Of a stretch of DNA of 64,000 nt, positions 7,950 through 53,429 are shown piece after piece; position 1 is the stretch's first letter; each line of letters opens with the position of its first letter. Origin of the DNA: Podarcis gaigeae. Lineage: Eukaryota. The notes under the pieces were generated by a model, which was not told where the DNA came from, did not search any database, and worked only from the letters and a program-made list of their open reading frames with translations. The stretch lies in assembly GCA_964106915.2 (NCBI GenBank), contig OZ066920.1; one strand, given 5' to 3'. The position numbers and the translations under genes were made by a program.

Positions 7950-8728
7950 ACAAGCATTTTGGTTTCCCTTTAAATGTCCCGGTCCTCAAACACTCTGCAT
8001 TTCAATAGGAAGAAAACTGCCCTTGCAGAGCTCAGGCGATGTTGGATTTCAGCATCAATATTGGCCCCTGTGAAAATATAAATGCCCAGTGATTGACACT
8101 TTCCAACGTTACACCATTGAGTTGCAGAGGGGTTGTTTTGTGCTTGTTGGTGCAGCACTTTGGTTTTTTGGATGTTGAATGATAGGCCAAGCTTTTCATA
8201 AGCTTCTGCAAATATATTTAGGATGGTTTGGAGGTCATCCTCTGATTGTGCACACACTATGTTGTCATCAGCATACTGAAGCTCTATGACAGAAGTCATC
8301 ACAACCTTACTCTTTGCTTTCAGCCTACTCAGATTAAAGAGCTTTCCATCTGTTCAATATACAATTTCTACCCTGGTGAGGAGTTTCCCTTTTACACAGC
8401 AATGAAAATAATAAATAGATTGGGACGATAACACAACCCTGTTTAACACCTGATCCCACTGTGAAAGGTTCACTTTGAGAGTCATTGTTGTCTGTGGTTG
8501 TTGCTGTCATATTATCATGGAGGAGCCAAAGGATGTTCACAAATTTATCTGGGCAACCAATTTTCAGAAGGACAGTCCACAGGGCATTACAATTTACAGT
8601 GTCAAAGGCCTTAGTCAGGTAAATAAATGCCATATACAGGGGTTGGTTTTGCTCTCTACATTTTTCTTGAAGCTGTTGAGCGGAGAAAATCATGTCCACT
8701 GTCCCCGTAGAAGGTAAAAAACCATTTT
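7950..8728 (-). mobile_element. RTE-clade LINE reverse transcriptase fragment (frameshifted)
   Basis: ORFs 8334-8834 and 7970-8302 give QNGF...TVDMIFSAQQLQEKCREQNQPLYMAFIYLTKAFDTV...SEPFTVGSGVKQGCVI and ELQYADD...LGLSFNIQKTKVL, which are RTE RT motifs. Confidence 0.92.
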
Positions 8729-8816
8729 GCTTCTGCGCATGTGGCGAAACCTGGTAAAATACTTCCGGGTTTGCCGCGTGCACATCCTGAAGTTTACATA
8801 AACAGAGGTATGACTG
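8729..8816. mobile_element. Partial Tigger-like MITE (one end)
   Basis: cttctgcgcatg...acttccgggtt...gaggtatgactg|ta resembles the right end of the cagtggtacc family elements. Confidence 0.55.
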
Positions 8817-10775
8817 TATTGCAACTGAGAACATTGATCCTTACCTTAAGACAGTGGGAGCCAGTGCCACTGGTAGTATTTATAACTTGCACTCATCAAA
8901 AATAGAAGGTTTTTTACTATGGGGTAAGCAAAGCCTTTTCGCTATGGGGCTACCTAGCTATTGAACATGAACTTTCAAAGAGAAGTTTGTTTTGCAGTGA
9001 AGAAGATCAGAAAAGGAAAGCTTTAAAATAGATTGGTCTGTTTTAGAATGCCTGGATTATATTTAGCTAAATCCTACTTTGAGTAGACCCATTCAAATTA
9101 ATGAAACTATGTCAGTTATGTTTATTAACTTCAGTGGGTCTACTCTGAATTGGACTAGCATTGAATACCATCTTTTGTCACTGTGCTGGTTACATTTTGT
9201 TTTTTTTGTTTTTAGACATCCAGTAAGGAAATACCTTTATAAGGACTAATAAAAAGTAACTGCAGGACTCTTCATGCTCAATGTTATGTCAAACAAAAAT
9301 AGCAAAAGTAGGATGAACCATGGTGTATTTTAAGAAACGTCAAAAATGTAATTTCAGAATTAAAATAGAAACTTTTCTTTCATGACTCATGAGGTTGTAT
9401 ACGTGCAATAGGAACATAGTATGTGTGGGGGAGGCAGCCTGTGTTACAAGTTTGTACTAGGCACAAAAATATGGTGTTTGGGCCTTGCTTGCATTCGCCC
9501 ACATAGCCATCGCTCTTCCACCTACCCACCCACCCCACTGCATCAAAACCCTGTTCCATTGATACTCCGGGAAAAGGGAGAGCACTGTGCTATATTTCCC
9601 TGCCTCTGTTTCTTTATTATTACCCAGAGGATCCCAACATGGCTGTTGAAAGAACTGCGGACTTTTTCTGGCCTTGAGGAACCTTCTATCTTCAAATGTT
9701 GCACTTTCTTCTTAAACATTTTTGTAAGGAGTAAAAAAACATAAAAAACATAAAAACCACAGCAGGTTTAGGAATACTTATAATAGTTGCACTTTTGCTT
9801 TTGACTGAGTCAGCAGGTAAATCTGTTTCCTTTTAGAACTTCATAAATATCTAACAAAACCTACTGAGAGTAAGGTATCAGAGACAAATGTAAATGCCTC
9901 TTTTTTAAAATAGCATTCTCAATCACTGTAATTATACCATGAGTATGTTTTTTAAAAGCATAGACATTTTGAATAATGTTCCAAATGCAGTTTCAAAGAT
10001 TCCTGCGGGGGGCAAAATTGGCTTTCTTTCACCTCTGAAGGGGGAAAAAAAACAAACCTGGAGCGCTAGATTTCATGGAAAGAGACAGATGTACTTTAGT
10101 TTGGTGTATATAATAGCAAGATAATATATTGTTTTGTACTGATTAAATGAAAGCATAAATAGCATTCATATTTCCCCGGTTTGTGTGTTTGGGAGGGAAA
10201 GCACATTACATTCTTGATCATGTAATGGATGGGGAAGGAAGTTTTGCTTCAAAAGCATAGCTATTTGCTACTGAAAAACAACATTTGCTTCTTTCGTACC
10301 AGTTTTAGAGAGGAGTGCAGAACTAAAGAAAACACATTTAAAAGATGCCAACAGTTAAATAATCTAGTGGTGTCTTGTTAGTGTATTACACCTTGGGGTG
10401 GGTGGGGAGGCTGGATGAGCTACCCACCAGAAGAGGTAGTGCTCAGTCTCTAAGCAGGGATGAGTAACCTGTGGCCCTTGAGATGTTGATGGGCTCCAGC
10501 TTCCATCAGTCCAAGCCAGTATGGCCAATGGCCAGGGATGATGGGAGTTGTAGTCCAACAACATAAGGAGCATTGCAGGTTCCCCATTCCTGCTCTAAGC
10601 TAATTTAAAAGGTCATACAATGGTTAGTGTAAATCATGTGTGATTTACAAAGGGGCCTCAAGCCTCTGCCCATGAATCAGGAGACACTCAGAGCGGTGGC
10701 GAGACCTTGTGTTTCCATCATGAGTTTCTACACCTTGGGCTCTCACCCATCAAGATCAGTACCTGAACCATTTAA

Positions 10776-43242: not shown

Positions 43243-43325
43243 AGCTTAAGTCCATAGTGATGGTTTCTGTGAAAAACAGGAGGCTGAGCTCACTGTTCTG
43301 CTTCCAAAGAAGCACTTGTCACAAC

Positions 43326-43409
43326 ATGGGTTGCAGCACTTCCAGCAGGGCAACTGTCAAGGAACCATCATCCAATAATCCACATCAGAGCAGAGAAGTC
43401 AAAAAGCAG
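43326..43409 (+). CDS. STMND1: Stathmin domain-containing protein 1, coding exon 1
   Basis: acaacATGG start, MGCSTSSRATVKEPSSNNPHQSREVKKQ with an MGCxxS acylation motif as in STMND1 N-termini, donor CAG|gtaata, phase 0. Confidence 0.85.
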
Positions 43410-44997: not shown

Positions 44998-45133
44998 GCT
45001 GAAAATGATCCACTTACTGGAACAGTTAACACTGTCTCCCAAGGTGGGTCAGGTGCTGAAGATTATTCAAGTGAAGGAAGGCTGCCAGACAGCGGTACAG
45101 GAAAGTTACCACCAGCTAATGAACAAAATACAG
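44998..45133 (+). CDS. STMND1: STMND1 coding exon 2
   Basis: Acceptor tttttccccag|, open frame AENDPLTGTVNTVSQGGSGAEDYSSEGRLPDSGTGKLPPANEQNT, donor CAG|gtgtga. Its 136 nt give phase 1, matching exon 3. Confidence 0.8.
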
Positions 45134-47670: not shown

Positions 47671-47822
47671 ACATACATAGAGGTGGACTTTCCAAGAAAC
47701 CAGTGAGCTTAACAGAAAGAGAAAGACAGACATCATCAGACATATTGGAGGAGCTTCGGATGCAAGGAATAATCAAGACCTCAAGTGCAAACTCTAATAA
47801 CAAAGCAGCAGATGATGCCACA
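47671..47822 (+). CDS. STMND1: STMND1 coding exon 3
   Basis: (D)IHRGGLSKKPVSLTERERQTSSDILEELRMQGIIKTSSANSNNKAADDAT matches the recalled STMND1 motif RERQKSSDILEELIVQGII. Acceptor aag|, donor ACA|gtaagt, 152 nt, phase 1 to 0. Confidence 0.92.
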
Positions 47823-47971
47823 GTAAGTAAATGTCAAAACTAACAGAAATACACTTTCCAGTCTGAGCTGATATTTCTGCAGTGAACTATGGGTTACTCC
47901 TGCAATGGCTCTTTCTTGTGGAATTGAGAATTGATTTAATTAAGCTGTTTATGTCATGTATGAGAAATTTA

Positions 47972-48058
47972 TATTATTATATTATATTATATTATATTAT
48001 ATTATATTATATTATATTATATTATATTATATTATATTATATTATATTATATTATTAT
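47972..48058. repeat. (TATTA)n microsatellite
   Basis: Seen directly. Confidence 0.95.
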
Positions 48059-48630: not shown

Positions 48631-49054
48631 TTAGGGTATATTTTTTCTGTTTGGCATTTTAATCCAAATTAGCTTTCATTGACAAAAGAAACACTCTGTA
48701 TAAAGTTGACATGAACTGAAAAAATGCAACAGATGGAATATAAGATTCAAAAATAGTAGCAAACAAGTTAAATCCTAACATCGGAGATAACATTAGCAGG
48801 ACTCTGAAAACTGTATGTACAAAAGTAACCTAAACACAATTAAGTAACTATGCATGACTACTCTGAAGTATATTGTAATGTGTTAAAATAGATTTTCATT
48901 ATTTCTCTTTCTATTTGTTCGGTTCTTTTCAACATTATTTCAAATACTGTGATTTAATTTATTCACATGCATGCACAGAGTAGAATAAAGTAATTCCCCT
49001 TTGAAAAACAAGACTTCCTTCACGGACATACATAAAATTTTACTATTTCTACAG

Positions 49055-49180
49055 TTGATAGATACAGGAAATCCACCAAAGAAACCACCAGCCAAACTGG
49101 AAAAGCTCGAAATCAAAAGGAAGCACATAATTTAACAATAGAGGACTCTGAAAACAAGCCATGTGTTGAAAAGAGAAGAA
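49055..49180 (+). pseudogene. STMND1: STMND1 exon 4, disrupted (frameshift and missing donor)
   Basis: Acceptor tttctacag|. Frame 0 reads LIDTGNPPKKPPAKLEKLEIKRKHII* (TAA 49133-49135). The -1 frame continues KEAHNLTIEDSENKPCVEKRR, aligning to recalled STMND1 [23 protein letters not shown]. There is no GT after the RR codons. Confidence 0.75.
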
Positions 49181-49412
49181 TCCACTAATCTGACTACATC
49201 ATTCTAGTATCTGAATACCTAACAATCAATAATGTATGTAACATCACAACGTATCTTTGAATTAGGAAAGCTTCTGTTCCCCATGTTACTACTGAACTTG
49301 GCTCTTACTGGACGAGGTGTTTCTAAACAAGTTTACTGACAGAGGCTAAAACAACTTTGAAATTTTCTGCCTTCCTGCCTTCCTTCCATCCTATGATCTG
49401 ATTAAATTCAAC

Positions 49413-49500
49413 ATGCATCCAGTGAAATAGACTCTAGTCCCAAAATGTAGTGCCACAGTAAGTGTTAGGTCATTAAGGTGCCACAAGGCTTTTTGTTGTT
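49413..49500 (+). mobile_element. Degenerate Penelope-like terminal fragment
   Basis: gttaggtcattaaggtgccacaaggctttttgttg resembles ttggtctttaaggtgctac of the element at 7223-7447. It is preceded by a possible decayed hammerhead remnant (gactctagtc). Confidence 0.4.
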
Positions 49501-49521
49501 CCTGCTTCAGCATGCAATGTA

Positions 49522-49712
49522 CAGTCATAAATTGGCTTTCGAACAGCTTAATTCACGAACAACTTGGAACTCGAACGTCGCAAACCTGGAAGTAGGTGTT
49601 CCGGTTTGCGAACTTTGCCTCAGAAGCCAAACAAGCAGTGCAACTTCTGCAGCTTCCGATTGGCTGCAGGACGCTCCTACACACATTCTGTTCGAAAACC
49701 AAGGTACAACTG
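49522..49712. mobile_element. Tigger-like MITE in STMND1 intron 4
   Basis: ta|cagtcataaattggctttcgaac...gttcgaaaaccaaggtacaactg, imperfect TIRs. Confidence 0.65.
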
Positions 49713-50598
49713 CACTGATAGAGCTGTAACTCTGACAGGAAGGTCAACAGCTTCTAACATCTGTCTTACTCAGATAGTCTTAACGTGGGTAAAACTCATG
49801 CATGGGGTTGGGGAAATCAATATTGCTATGGTTGACCATGACCTTCACATATTCAAAGTGGTTTTTTTCATGCTGAGCATGCATGCATACAAGTTCTATG
49901 CACATAGGCTGTCTCCATGCACCCTTCAAAATAAAGGGTCCTGGATTATATATACAGGGTCTATGCACCTATAAACAGCGTTTGAAACTCCGATTGTTCT
50001 AGGCACGTTTTGTGACAAGGAATTTCATTAACGCTAGCAGTTTCTGAGCTCTAGGCGCAGTACTGAGCCTAAGATTTCAGATTAAAATTGCCACTGCTGT
50101 AAGAAAAGGACAACCTTTTTCTGCCTCCCCACTTCCAGCCACTCTGACTAGAAAAGGGACCCTCATAAGACTATTAGGGGAGCGGGCACGGGAAGTATGG
50201 CTTTGTTTTTGCAGTCGTCAGATGAGGACTAGACCATGTGAAAAATGAACATAATATTTTTGCTGCAGTTCATTCATTTTCCGCTTTGTATTCTGGTTAT
50301 GAAAAAGTGCGCCTAGTAAACACTCCTTTGTGGCGCCCATAACCTAGGTTTAAGGTGCCATTTACCTCCTAGCTTTCATATCTCTGTTTCTATAAATTGT
50401 ATGCCTGCAAGCTCTGTGCTAAAAGCAATGATGAGCACATTGAGGTAAGGGCAGGGCCTACCTTTGCAATAGCCATCTCTCCCCTCCACATGTTAAGTAT
50501 ATTCACATTAAGAATTTGTTTGTGGTGCTAGCCTATGCGTATGCATGTCTCTACAAATGTTGTATCCCTACCCCATTTAAAGAGGCGTCTCTTTTCAG

Positions 50599-50868
50599 AC
50601 AAGAGAAGAGCAACTGAAAAAGGAATTGCTGACTGACAGACCATCACCACTAACCTCCCATGAAAGCAGAACTACAGGGAGTGACATAGACTGTTTAGCT
50701 TCTGAAGTTGAAAAAACTTCTAATACTTTTCAGTTGCTTTCCTTAAATCTGGGTTCAGGAAGCTGGATAGAGAAAGAAGATTGGGATGATAATGTAAAGG
50801 ACAATTTTGAAGGTTTCAGTATGGTGGAGTCAGATGTCACTTATAATATGGTAAATGAAGCATTTTAA
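50599..50868 (+). CDS. STMND1: STMND1 terminal coding exon 5
   Basis: Acceptor ctcttttcag|, 89 open codons TREEQLKKELLTDRPSP...DNFEGFSMVESDVTYNMVNEAF*. These match the recalled STMND1 TKEEEIRKRLRSDR and C-terminal FGVVESDMSYN motifs. Phase 0. Confidence 0.88.
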   Translation, partial: TREEQLKKELLTDRPSPLTSHESRTTGSDIDCLASEVEKTSNTFQLLSLNLGSGSWIEKEDWDDNVKDNFEGFSMVESDVTYNMVNEAF

Positions 50869-50942: not shown

Positions 50943-53065
50943 TGTACTAAAAACCAAATGAAAACATTTGATTATGGTTTAATTTGATAGGATATTTTCA
51001 ATTTCTTTCCCCACAGACAAATAAGAATATGATGTAACTCATTCTAGCAGGATTGTTTATTATTTTCAAATACGAAGCAATTGATACAGTTTGTAAGTGA
51101 ATAAATATTCAGAATTCATGAAGAAGAATAACAAACTTGAAATAGACCTTTAAAATGGTCTCATTATTGACTGTTTCCACTTTAGAGCAAAAGAAAACTT
51201 TGCCATCCTAATCACTGAGGTATTGATATAAGGAGGGATAAACAGTGCAATCCTACGTATGTCCACTCAGTCAGAAATAATTGTATTGTTGCAGTGTTAG
51301 CACTAGGGCCACCAATGAACTATGTGCCGAAACATCAGTTAAACAATTTAGATTTTAAAAAGATAAATTTGCTGGGACCCCCGGAGGAGAGACAGCGAAA
51401 TGAACCGATAGAGCAGTCTTTCCCATTTGTACATAACTGTTAGCTCCATTATTAGCATAATCAGCCTTACTTCATGTCCACTGGTGGCTACATTAACAGA
51501 AGCTATCCAACAGTTGGCTGTTCCCAGATTGAACGTTCTAGAATTCAACGTGAAAGCAGGCAAGCCAGTAGTGTTGATCCAGCAAGGGCAATGCCTAGGA
51601 GGACACAGGCCTCTCTACCCCCTTATTGTCCTTCTTGATGCAGCCTTGCTTCTACAAGGGAGTGGGAGGTGAACATCTGTAGTATCCAGGATAGCATGTC
51701 CAGCATACACTGCTAAATAAAGATGTGCTGCTGTCAGCAGTGCCAGGACCAGTCATGGTTTGCTGAAATTGGGAGATTTGTTCCTTTCACAATACCAGAA
51801 TTGTGTTGTTTTTTGACATGGGTGTGTGTGTGTGTCCGTCCCCACTACCTGAAACATCCCCATTACACCATGGATATTACTTAAAATGCAAACATGTTAC
51901 ACCCTTAACATTTTCCTGAAAAATAATGCTGACGGACTTGTGAATGTTTTGTAACTTTTATGCTTCAGAAATAAATCTCTCAAGCAATAAATACATGCAA
52001 ACATGTTAGCCCAAAACAGCCATGCAATTTCACACCTTGCATCGGCAATCTGGGATCGTCAGGAGGTGGTAGAAGGAAGCAAAAGTGGCACAGTGAAAGA
52101 AAAGGAAACTTCCGTGAGTGTTCATGCAGTTTATTGCAGAGAACAGTAGATGGAGCCCTGGTGAGCGTCAGCACTGAAAAGCTTACACTCAAGTCAAAAC
52201 TGGAGCACCAAAGATGTCAGGGAGTAGATGCAGTAACAGCCTGCACCAACCTGGTCCCTCCAGATGTTTTTGACTACCATTTCCATCAACCCCGGACACT
52301 GGGGGGCACTAGGTTGGCAAAACCTCCTACATAACATTCCATACTCACATTGCACTGTCTTGAAGCTCAACATTTTTGAAGGATTAGTTTCAGGTTTTTG
52401 TGAGTGCTGGATAAAAAGCAAGAGGGTTCTTTTTCTATCTAAAGGTGCTTGGATATGAATCTCTGATCTTGCCCCCCACTGCCACATAACTAATTATTGG
52501 GCCGCCAGATCCTTCAACGAAACAAATATAATAATAATAATTTATTATTTGTAGCCTACCCATCTCACTGGGTTGCTCCAGCCACTCTGGGCAGCTTATA
52601 TGGTTTATAACTGTTACTGACACATACTGACACCCATTTCTGACTCCTGCCAGTGACCCACCAGCATAATGTGGCCTGATGCTGTGAAAAATGTATAGGA
52701 TCAAAAGGTATGTTCAGATTAGGGCTGAGAGACAAATCACAACCGTCCTTTGAAATTTGTGCAACTTTAAATCTTGCCATGCAGTTCTCTAACAGAGCAA
52801 TGTGTCCAAAAACACTTATAATGAGCTGAAGAGCAGCTTCATCAACGAAAATAGCACGCAACACAATGGGGATCCTGTGGCCCTCCAGATGTTCCTGGAC
52901 TACAATTACCATCATCCCTAATCTGCTGTCTGGGGCTGGTGGGAAATGGAGTCCAATCAATGTATGGAAGCAGCAGGTTCTTGACATACAACAATGTAAT
53001 GTATTAGTGGGAAATACATTGGAAAAAAGGAGAAATTTGCACGAACATGCTGCTAAATTTTCAGG

Positions 53066-53429
53066 TAAAGGTAAAGGTAAAGATACCCCTGCCCGTAGGG
53101 GCCAGTCGTGTCCGACTCTAGGGTTGTGCGCCCATCTCACTCTAGAGGCCAGCGCTGTCCGGAGACACTTCCGGGTCACGTGGCCAGTGTGACATTGCTG
53201 CTCTGGTGAGCCAGCACCAGCACAGCACACGGAAACGCCGTTTACCTTCCCGCTATAAAGCGGTACCTATTTATCTACTTGCACTTTAGGGGTGCTTTCG
53301 AACTGCTAGGTGGGCAGGAGCTGGGACTGTTTGACGGGAGCTCACCCCGCTGCAGGGATTCGAACCGCCGACCATGCGATCGGCAAGCCCTAGGTGCTGA
53401 GGATTTACCCACAGCGCCACCTGCGTCCC
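53066..53429 (-). mobile_element. Full-length Sauria SINE
   Basis: (aaaggt)n tail through to gcgccacctgcgtccc head with an 11-bp TSD aaattttcagg (53055-53065, 53430-53440). Confidence 0.95.

Follow-up and report, generated by a model that had tools for sequence, protein, structure and literature searches.

Can a gene related to the stathmins lose the segment with which it binds tubulin and still be kept? The question is raised by the STMND1 locus of the lizard Podarcis gaigeae, in which exon 4, expected to encode the start of the stathmin helix, carries a premature stop. The locus lies in a 64,000-nucleotide stretch of contig OZ066920.1 (assembly GCA_964106915.2), called the window below. A first, sequence-only reading had proposed that two separate lesions in exon 4 removed the tubulin-binding module in this lineage.

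In the sections of Deng et al. (2024; PMC11238091) considered here, the stathmin-like domain of human STMND1 binds tubulin with a KD of 0.4–0.6 µM and the protein is proposed to be a sensor of soluble tubulin, in which tubulin binding masks a nuclear localization signal (NLS) within the domain; the effector function is left open. The NLS consensus given in those sections fits the first half of exon 4, and the knockout described in the legends of supplement 1 removed the exon 4/intron 4 boundary. A tubulin-free function has been argued for membrane-bound stathmins in the part considered here of 10.1101/2025.02.27.640326. In the main text of PMC11238091 none of the words reptile, lizard or bird is used, and six genus names are absent from its four text supplements. 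No earlier report of STMND1 exon-4 loss in lizards was found in the literature on STMND1 and on the stathmin domain combined with lizard; as far as we could find, breakage of exon 4 in lacertids was previously unreported.

The STMND1 locus and its fourth exon

The gene in the window is the single STMND1 orthologue of a Podarcis-type lacertid lizard. Searches with exon 3 retrieved proteins named STMND1, the best being that of Podarcis raffonei (96%), and all named homologues in the protein searches were either STMND1 or RBM24 read-through fusions, which bears out the gene identity and exon assignment first made from the sequence. A second STMND1 copy was sought across the genome and only this one locus was found; four canonical stathmin loci, matching Pfam PF00836 above cut-off, lie elsewhere in the genome. 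RBM24 adjoins STMND1 on the same strand; it starts about 2 kb past the window end (from genome coordinate C16:61322149 onward), about 15 kb after the STMND1 stop, a distance that makes read-through transcripts plausible. Fusion models indicate that the two genes are neighbours in other species as well. In snake models, exon 4 of STMND1 is fused to exon 2 of RBM24, and for Hemicordylus the STMND1 protein is recorded as an isoform of RBM24.

The first codons carry a putative dual-lipidation motif, MGC (43326–43334). An upstream in-frame ATG at 43260 (43260–43325) would add 22 residues before this motif, and similar N-terminal extensions are present in Podarcis, Pogona and Sceloporus models; if this ATG were used, N-myristoylation at the glycine would be blocked. 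Intron 3 contains a (TATAT)n microsatellite of about 90 bases (about 47967–48057). The open frames at 8334–8840 (minus strand) and 52565–53266 are presumably LINE reverse transcriptase-like fragments or other repeats. Features of the gene are collected in Table 1.

Table 1. Features of the STMND1 gene in the window (positions are those of the window).
Feature	Position	Strand	Observation
Exon 1, coding part	43326..43409	+	starts with MGC lipidation motif (putative); phase 0 GT donor
Exon 2	44998..45133	+	open; AG/GT intact
Exon 3	47671..47822	+	open; near-invariant SSDILEEL...QGII motif; phase 0 end at GTAAGT donor
Exon 4 acceptor	49053..49054	+	intact; used, contigs of 4/4 RNA-type runs starting at 49054/49055
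Exon 4, translated part	49055..49135	+	26 codons, then premature TAA at 49133-49135
NLS-like stretch (putative)	49073..49123	+	fits NLS consensus in the sections of PMC11238091 considered; 20/23 identical to Rhineura
Frameshift site	49118..49125	+	purine-rich run; net -4 bases relative to squamate norm; frame switch by tblastn
Start of stathmin helix, remnant out of frame	49120..49158	+	13 codons ending ENK
Squamate exon-4 donor position	49159..49160	+	reads CC, donor lost; unchanged in 4/4 DNA runs
Probable relic of ancestral helix end, PCVEKRRIH	49159..49185	+	ancestral donor would fall at 49183, which reads CA
Cryptic GT donor	49234..49235	+	gives a 179-nt exon 4; best-scoring donor near the exon; used in relatives
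Exon 5	50599..50868	+	89 open codons and stop; phase 0; translatable only with exon 4 skipped

As the sequence-only reading had it, the frame that enters exon 4 from exon 3 runs into the premature TAA, and a helix-like peptide, KEAHNLTIEDSENKPCVEKRR, lies in a shifted frame at 49117–49179. Its homology to the first stathmin helix is supported by Xenopus STMND1, residues 128–194 of which align in register to residues 15–75 of RB3, albeit weakly (E 0.2). Within the window, 49117–49158 is identical to Hemicordylus at 12 of 14 residues. The loss of one A at 49115–49118, to which the shift had been ascribed, does not fit the codon counts: from the LExK motif to the end of ENK there are 15 codons (45 nt) in 16 of 17 squamate proteins, 17 codons in Rhineura, and 41 nt in the window. 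A net loss of four bases near 49118–49125 is more parsimonious, and the one-base deletion was rejected on these counts. Sceloporus is frameshifted within the same purine-rich run by a different length, which suggests a separate event. The putative NLS, upstream of the stop, is retained in the truncated product and is absent from a product that skips exon 4. At the exon 3/4 border (47805–47825, 49055–49060), the Xenopus motif that aligns to the RB3 hairpin is unrecognisable in squamates, a further sign of domain erosion.

The lesion was compared with read data. Four DNA runs were used, out of 14 that contained at least half of the sampled words; they come from four studies and bear four organism labels, and one of them (X3) may be the assembly's own source, the other three being labelled differently. 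All four are free of indels in 49055–49202, and the three donor positions are unchanged; the sole change in the coding part of exon 4 is at 49109, in one run. Four RNA-type runs (of six with a share of at least 0.14; the RNA type is a guess) represent relatives, with organism labels other than that of the window, and their exon-4 contigs show no gap inside the exon; none of the RNA-type runs listed carries the label of the window, which has no bearing on its expression. In addition, the annotated proteins of P. lilfordi (CAI5779968.1) and P. raffonei (isoform X2, XP_053252822.1) end with the identical 26 residues. The lesions are thus common to at least three Podarcis assemblies and to seven further organism labels in the read data. 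Five A's in the run together with a GT donor had been named as signs of an assembly error; contigs show four A's and no GT. The agreement between DNA runs, RNA-type runs and two other annotations indicates that the lesion is real.

Donor sites and splicing of exon 4

In protein models of 12 squamate species, ENK or its equivalent is joined directly to exon 5 (nine snakes, the gecko Eublepharis, the cordylid Hemicordylus and the amphisbaenian Rhineura), and python read-through models go on with V after ENK, consistent with a GT. Since squamates end exon 4 after ENK, the donor lost in the lineage of the window is the one at 49159–49160, and not, as had been thought, one following the AGA AGA codons. 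The latter position marks an older donor. Amphibian and mammalian proteins have nine additional residues beyond ENK, and according to the platypus and bird read-through models the old donor lay one codon past the arginine pair, at 49183 in the window. The observation that no GT follows AGA AGA holds (none at 49180 or 49183). The agamid read-through likewise has no GT-type codon at the ancestral position, and early squamates had probably already lost this older donor.

The GT at 49165, described as weak, is very weak (-6.3 on a rough donor matrix with approximate frequencies). It was rejected as a rescue donor, being located downstream of the stop and showing no joint in RNA contigs.

The nine codons that follow ENK are most plausibly a relic of the former end of the helix, which would have become intronic in early squamates. 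When a gap of one codon is allowed, PCVEKRR of the window aligns to the read-through tail of Pogona; agamid and amphibian tails are longer by one residue, in agreement with the missing residue noted earlier. Scores against nine tails were compared with those of 20,000 random 9-codon translations of the window. Six tails gave low empirical p values (Phrynocephalus 0.002, Pogona 0.011, three amphibians 0.003–0.006, one mammal 0.017), and the remaining three gave no match (a second mammal 0.07, a skink-like protein 0.2, python 0.7). The first codon after ENK encodes V in pythons, T in agamids, A in the skink-like protein and P in the window, each one base change away from an alanine-type codon; judging from protein models, early squamates may therefore have used a weak GC donor.

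STMND1 is transcribed in four organism labels, all of relatives. In two of the four RNA-type runs (X15 and X20), exon 4 ends at the cryptic donor, with a joint from 49233 to 50599 across a GT..AG intron, and each of these runs has one differing letter in exon 4, at 49224. The X15 contig has 377 more letters upstream, near the 372 coding bases of exons 1–3. The X20 exon contig is 239 nt long, that is, the 179-nt exon with 30 letters on each side, as a cassette exon would probably look in an assembly graph. In runs X16 and X17 the contig extends into intron 4, to 49554 and 49564, respectively. These intron-reading contigs break within 49519–49680, an interspersed repeat with many genome copies at 82–88% identity. 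Two further changes, a 6-base insertion that keeps the frame of exon 5 (50800–50801) and a 1-base deletion in the 3' UTR (50893), are common to runs X17 and X20 and mark a more distant lineage with the same exon-4 frameshift.

Nonsense-mediated decay acts on transcripts in which the stop lies more than 50–55 nt upstream of the last junction. In the cryptic isoform seen in RNA contigs of relatives this distance is 98 nt; the isoform is thus a predicted decay target, with its stop placed as in a poison exon. Exon 4 is symmetric, since exons 3 and 5 are both in phase 0, so that its skipping preserves the frame, and exon 3 is joined to exon 5 in the RefSeq models of P. raffonei (X1) and P. muralis. 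We infer from these models and from the phase that exon 4 is skipped in the species of the window, and its splicing from that of the relatives. Transcription with a cryptic donor and the possibility of in-frame skipping had both gone unnoticed in the sequence-only reading. An in-frame joint between exons 4 and 5 had been named as evidence against loss; none was seen in the RNA contigs of relatives. No product, whether cryptically spliced, intron-reading or skipped, can keep the helix, which is out of frame and split by the lost donors, as the sequence-only reading had concluded.

The stathmin helix across vertebrates

The comparisons below use predicted protein models, of which some are ab initio or of low quality (Rhineura). 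In a hand-picked panel searched with PF00836 at E up to 1, all six amphibian and mammalian proteins matched (three above cut-off) and none of 19 from reptiles and birds did; at the same threshold there was no match in four Podarcis proteins or in three pieces of the window. A regular expression for the full-length helix found it in 19/21 amphibian, 10/14 mammalian and 0/67 reptile and bird species entries, 22 of the last being squamates; fish and unnamed records were excluded from these tallies, and true cases were missed (crocodilians, Vipera, several mammals, birds), so that counts of NLS plus exon 5 are lower bounds. Read in this way, the NLS and exon 5 are separated by 28 residues in 20/21 amphibian entries, by 27 in 10/14 mammalian entries, by 25 in 11/13 turtles and by 19 in 10/22 squamate entries. 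Every squamate examined lacks nine helix residues in the spliced product, and turtles and birds lack three. Manis pentadactyla and Sus scrofa models diverge after exon 4 and are probably annotation variants.

In gene models of lizards, exon 4 is often not joined to exon 5. Among 13 named species, only three (Rhineura, Hemicordylus and Eublepharis) have a model in which exon 4 continues into exon 5. For the other 10 (three Podarcis, Pogona, Phrynocephalus, Sceloporus, Phrynosoma, Lerista, Paroedura and Sphaerodactylus), every model either skips exon 4 or terminates within it, and the lesions differ. Pogona and Paroedura each have one skipped and one exon-4-terminal model. Exon 4 is also skipped in models of chicken, pheasant (X1), swan, goose and Oxyura. 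In nine of 11 snake entries the shortened exon 4 is still in frame, the other two being RBM24 fusions, so that exon 4 is not dispensable everywhere.

The named matches of the protein searches included no STMND1 of Lacerta, Zootoca, Anolis, Varanus or tuatara. No STMND1 protein from another lacertid genus was found among these matches or among the 10 new representatives of a further search that were looked up by name, and a search for short exon-4 proteins of other lacertids gave no candidate. In conclusion, the gene models suggest a recurrent, clade-wide loss of the stathmin domain from a retained gene in lizards and birds.

Explanations for a broken exon, and known systems

Exon 4 carries a frameshift shared among relatives, a premature stop and no in-frame donor, and we consider it fairly probable that STMND1 survives through products that lack the tubulin-binding helix. 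With similar confidence, on comparison of sequences and models, the breakage in lacertids would complete a helix erosion that had started earlier and that recurs in reptiles and birds. First, early squamates would have shifted the exon-4 donor 27 bases upstream, cutting nine helix residues and leaving their relic in the intron. Second, tubulin binding was likely already weak or gone, and selection on exon 4 would have been relaxed. Third, the lacertid line would have lost the 49159 donor and taken the net 4-base deletion. The same relaxation likely explains the separate losses of exon 4 in other lizards and in birds. Three products are predicted: an exon-skipped protein of 212 residues, with the lipid anchor and neither NLS nor helix; a truncated protein of 150 residues, with anchor and NLS; and a cryptically spliced RNA that would likely be removed by nonsense-mediated decay. 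The order of events, the decay of the cryptic form and the loss of tubulin binding in lizard STMND1 are each deduced from sequence.

Simple decay of the exon does not predict one observation, its near invariance in the RNA-type runs. Run X20 differs at 1/179 positions in exon 4 and at 17/327 in exon 5 plus UTR (p 0.005), and run X15 at 1/179 and 16/367 (p 0.016). Among the at least 40 differences listed for the RNA-type runs, which were chosen for words common to this stretch and have 73 further difference rows outside the list, none falls in 49055–49223 (169 positions) and 21 sites fall in 49224–49462 (239 positions; p 1e-5). This is the basis for a different reading, in which selection would keep the broken exon 4 as a switch, either because it yields a short protein that bears the NLS and is functional, or because it adjusts the output of STMND1 by decay, as a poison exon does. 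In its full form, STMND1 of reptiles and birds would have given up tubulin binding and would persist because of a role without tubulin, borne by its lipid anchor and its exon-3 and C-terminal motifs; exon 4 of lacertids would have become, under selection, a switch with three outcomes, namely a protein found at membranes only, a short protein that has the NLS and has escaped gating by tubulin, and decay of the RNA. The use of the acceptor in all four RNA-type runs and of a defined cryptic donor in two fits such a role, as do the paired skipped and exon-4-terminal models of Pogona and Paroedura and the identity of the NLS part to Rhineura (20/23 residues, compared with 37/47 in exon 3 and 66/89 in exon 5). 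However, leaky splicing of a dying exon yields the same transcripts. Moreover, if the unlisted differences lay inside the exon, the signal would vanish for two runs (p 0.48 and 0.80), and the DNA runs show no excess conservation (4/169 against 14/482, p 1.0). We regard a selected switch, in either form, as unlikely.

It is distinctly doubtful that the whole of STMND1 is slowly becoming a pseudogene in lacertids, exon 4 being merely the first part to break. The residues that differ between the window and three Podarcis species (0/28 in exon 1, 1–3/45 in exon 2, 2/50 in exon 3 and 5–6/89 in exon 5) are numerous in exons 2 and 5 when nearby DNA of other relatives differs by about 1.3%; P. lilfordi has a substitution within the conserved exon-3 motif, and the absence of an STMND1 protein from any other lacertid genus in our searches points in the same direction. 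However, a unitary pseudogene has no intact frame or no expression, whereas here exons 1, 2, 3 and 5 are open and in phase with intact splice sites, and transcripts are present in four organism labels. Even though it can be translated only by skipping exon 4, exon 5 has stayed open, and the only coding indel seen in it is the in-frame gain of six bases in two more distant relatives.

The original proposal, that two lineage-specific lesions removed a tubulin-binding helix intact until then, is very improbable. On present data the frameshift and the loss of the 49159 donor are indeed specific to lacertids, the relic still resembles the helix end of three amphibians (p 0.003–0.006), and the long exon could have persisted in lacertids and agamids beyond what parsimony estimates. 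However, the full helix is found in none of the 22 squamate entries, Rhineura, the closest outgroup found, ends exon 4 at ENK, and the agamid read-through has no GT-type codon at the ancestral donor. All squamates examined lack nine helix residues, and parallel losses of exon 4 appear in agamid, phrynosomatid, gecko, skink and galloanserine bird models, so that the loss is not confined to one lineage. Finally, an assembly or homopolymer error, a natural suspicion for an indel in a purine-rich run, is refuted by the identical state of the four DNA runs, the four RNA-type runs and two independent Podarcis annotations.

STMND1 is a cilia gene, and lizards and birds appear to offer natural separation-of-function alleles of it. 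After a stepwise erosion the helix was discarded many times, while the lipid anchor and the exon-3 and C-terminal motifs were retained, which points to these motifs as the carriers of a tubulin-independent function. The pattern also narrows the extent to which tubulin sensing can be called a conserved property of the STMND1 clade.

The mechanism of loss itself is ordinary, consisting of frameshift, donor loss and in-frame skipping. Loss of a domain at the level of an exon, by frameshift and exon skipping, is a known kind of event, as are poison exons coupled to nonsense-mediated decay. Like these, exon 4 is symmetric in phase 0, can be skipped, and places a stop more than 50–55 nt upstream of the last junction when it is included. 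In contrast to them, it is a former core coding exon lost repeatedly across a whole vertebrate clade, and its regulatory role is putative. Compared with STMN1-4, which are the canonical stathmins (PF00836), exon 4 and the beginning of exon 5 are the counterpart of RB3's first helix, as present in tubulin complexes (e.g. 4i4t_E); four loci of this genome match PF00836 and the STMND1 locus does not, nor is the first helix continuous in its translated product. Compared with STMND1 as described in the sections of PMC11238091 considered here, the lizard gene likewise has the MGC motif, the exon-3 motif, an NLS-like stretch and the C-terminal motif. However, the human NLS lies inside a tubulin-binding domain, whereas the predicted lizard products have no helix and never combine the NLS and the C-terminus in one protein.
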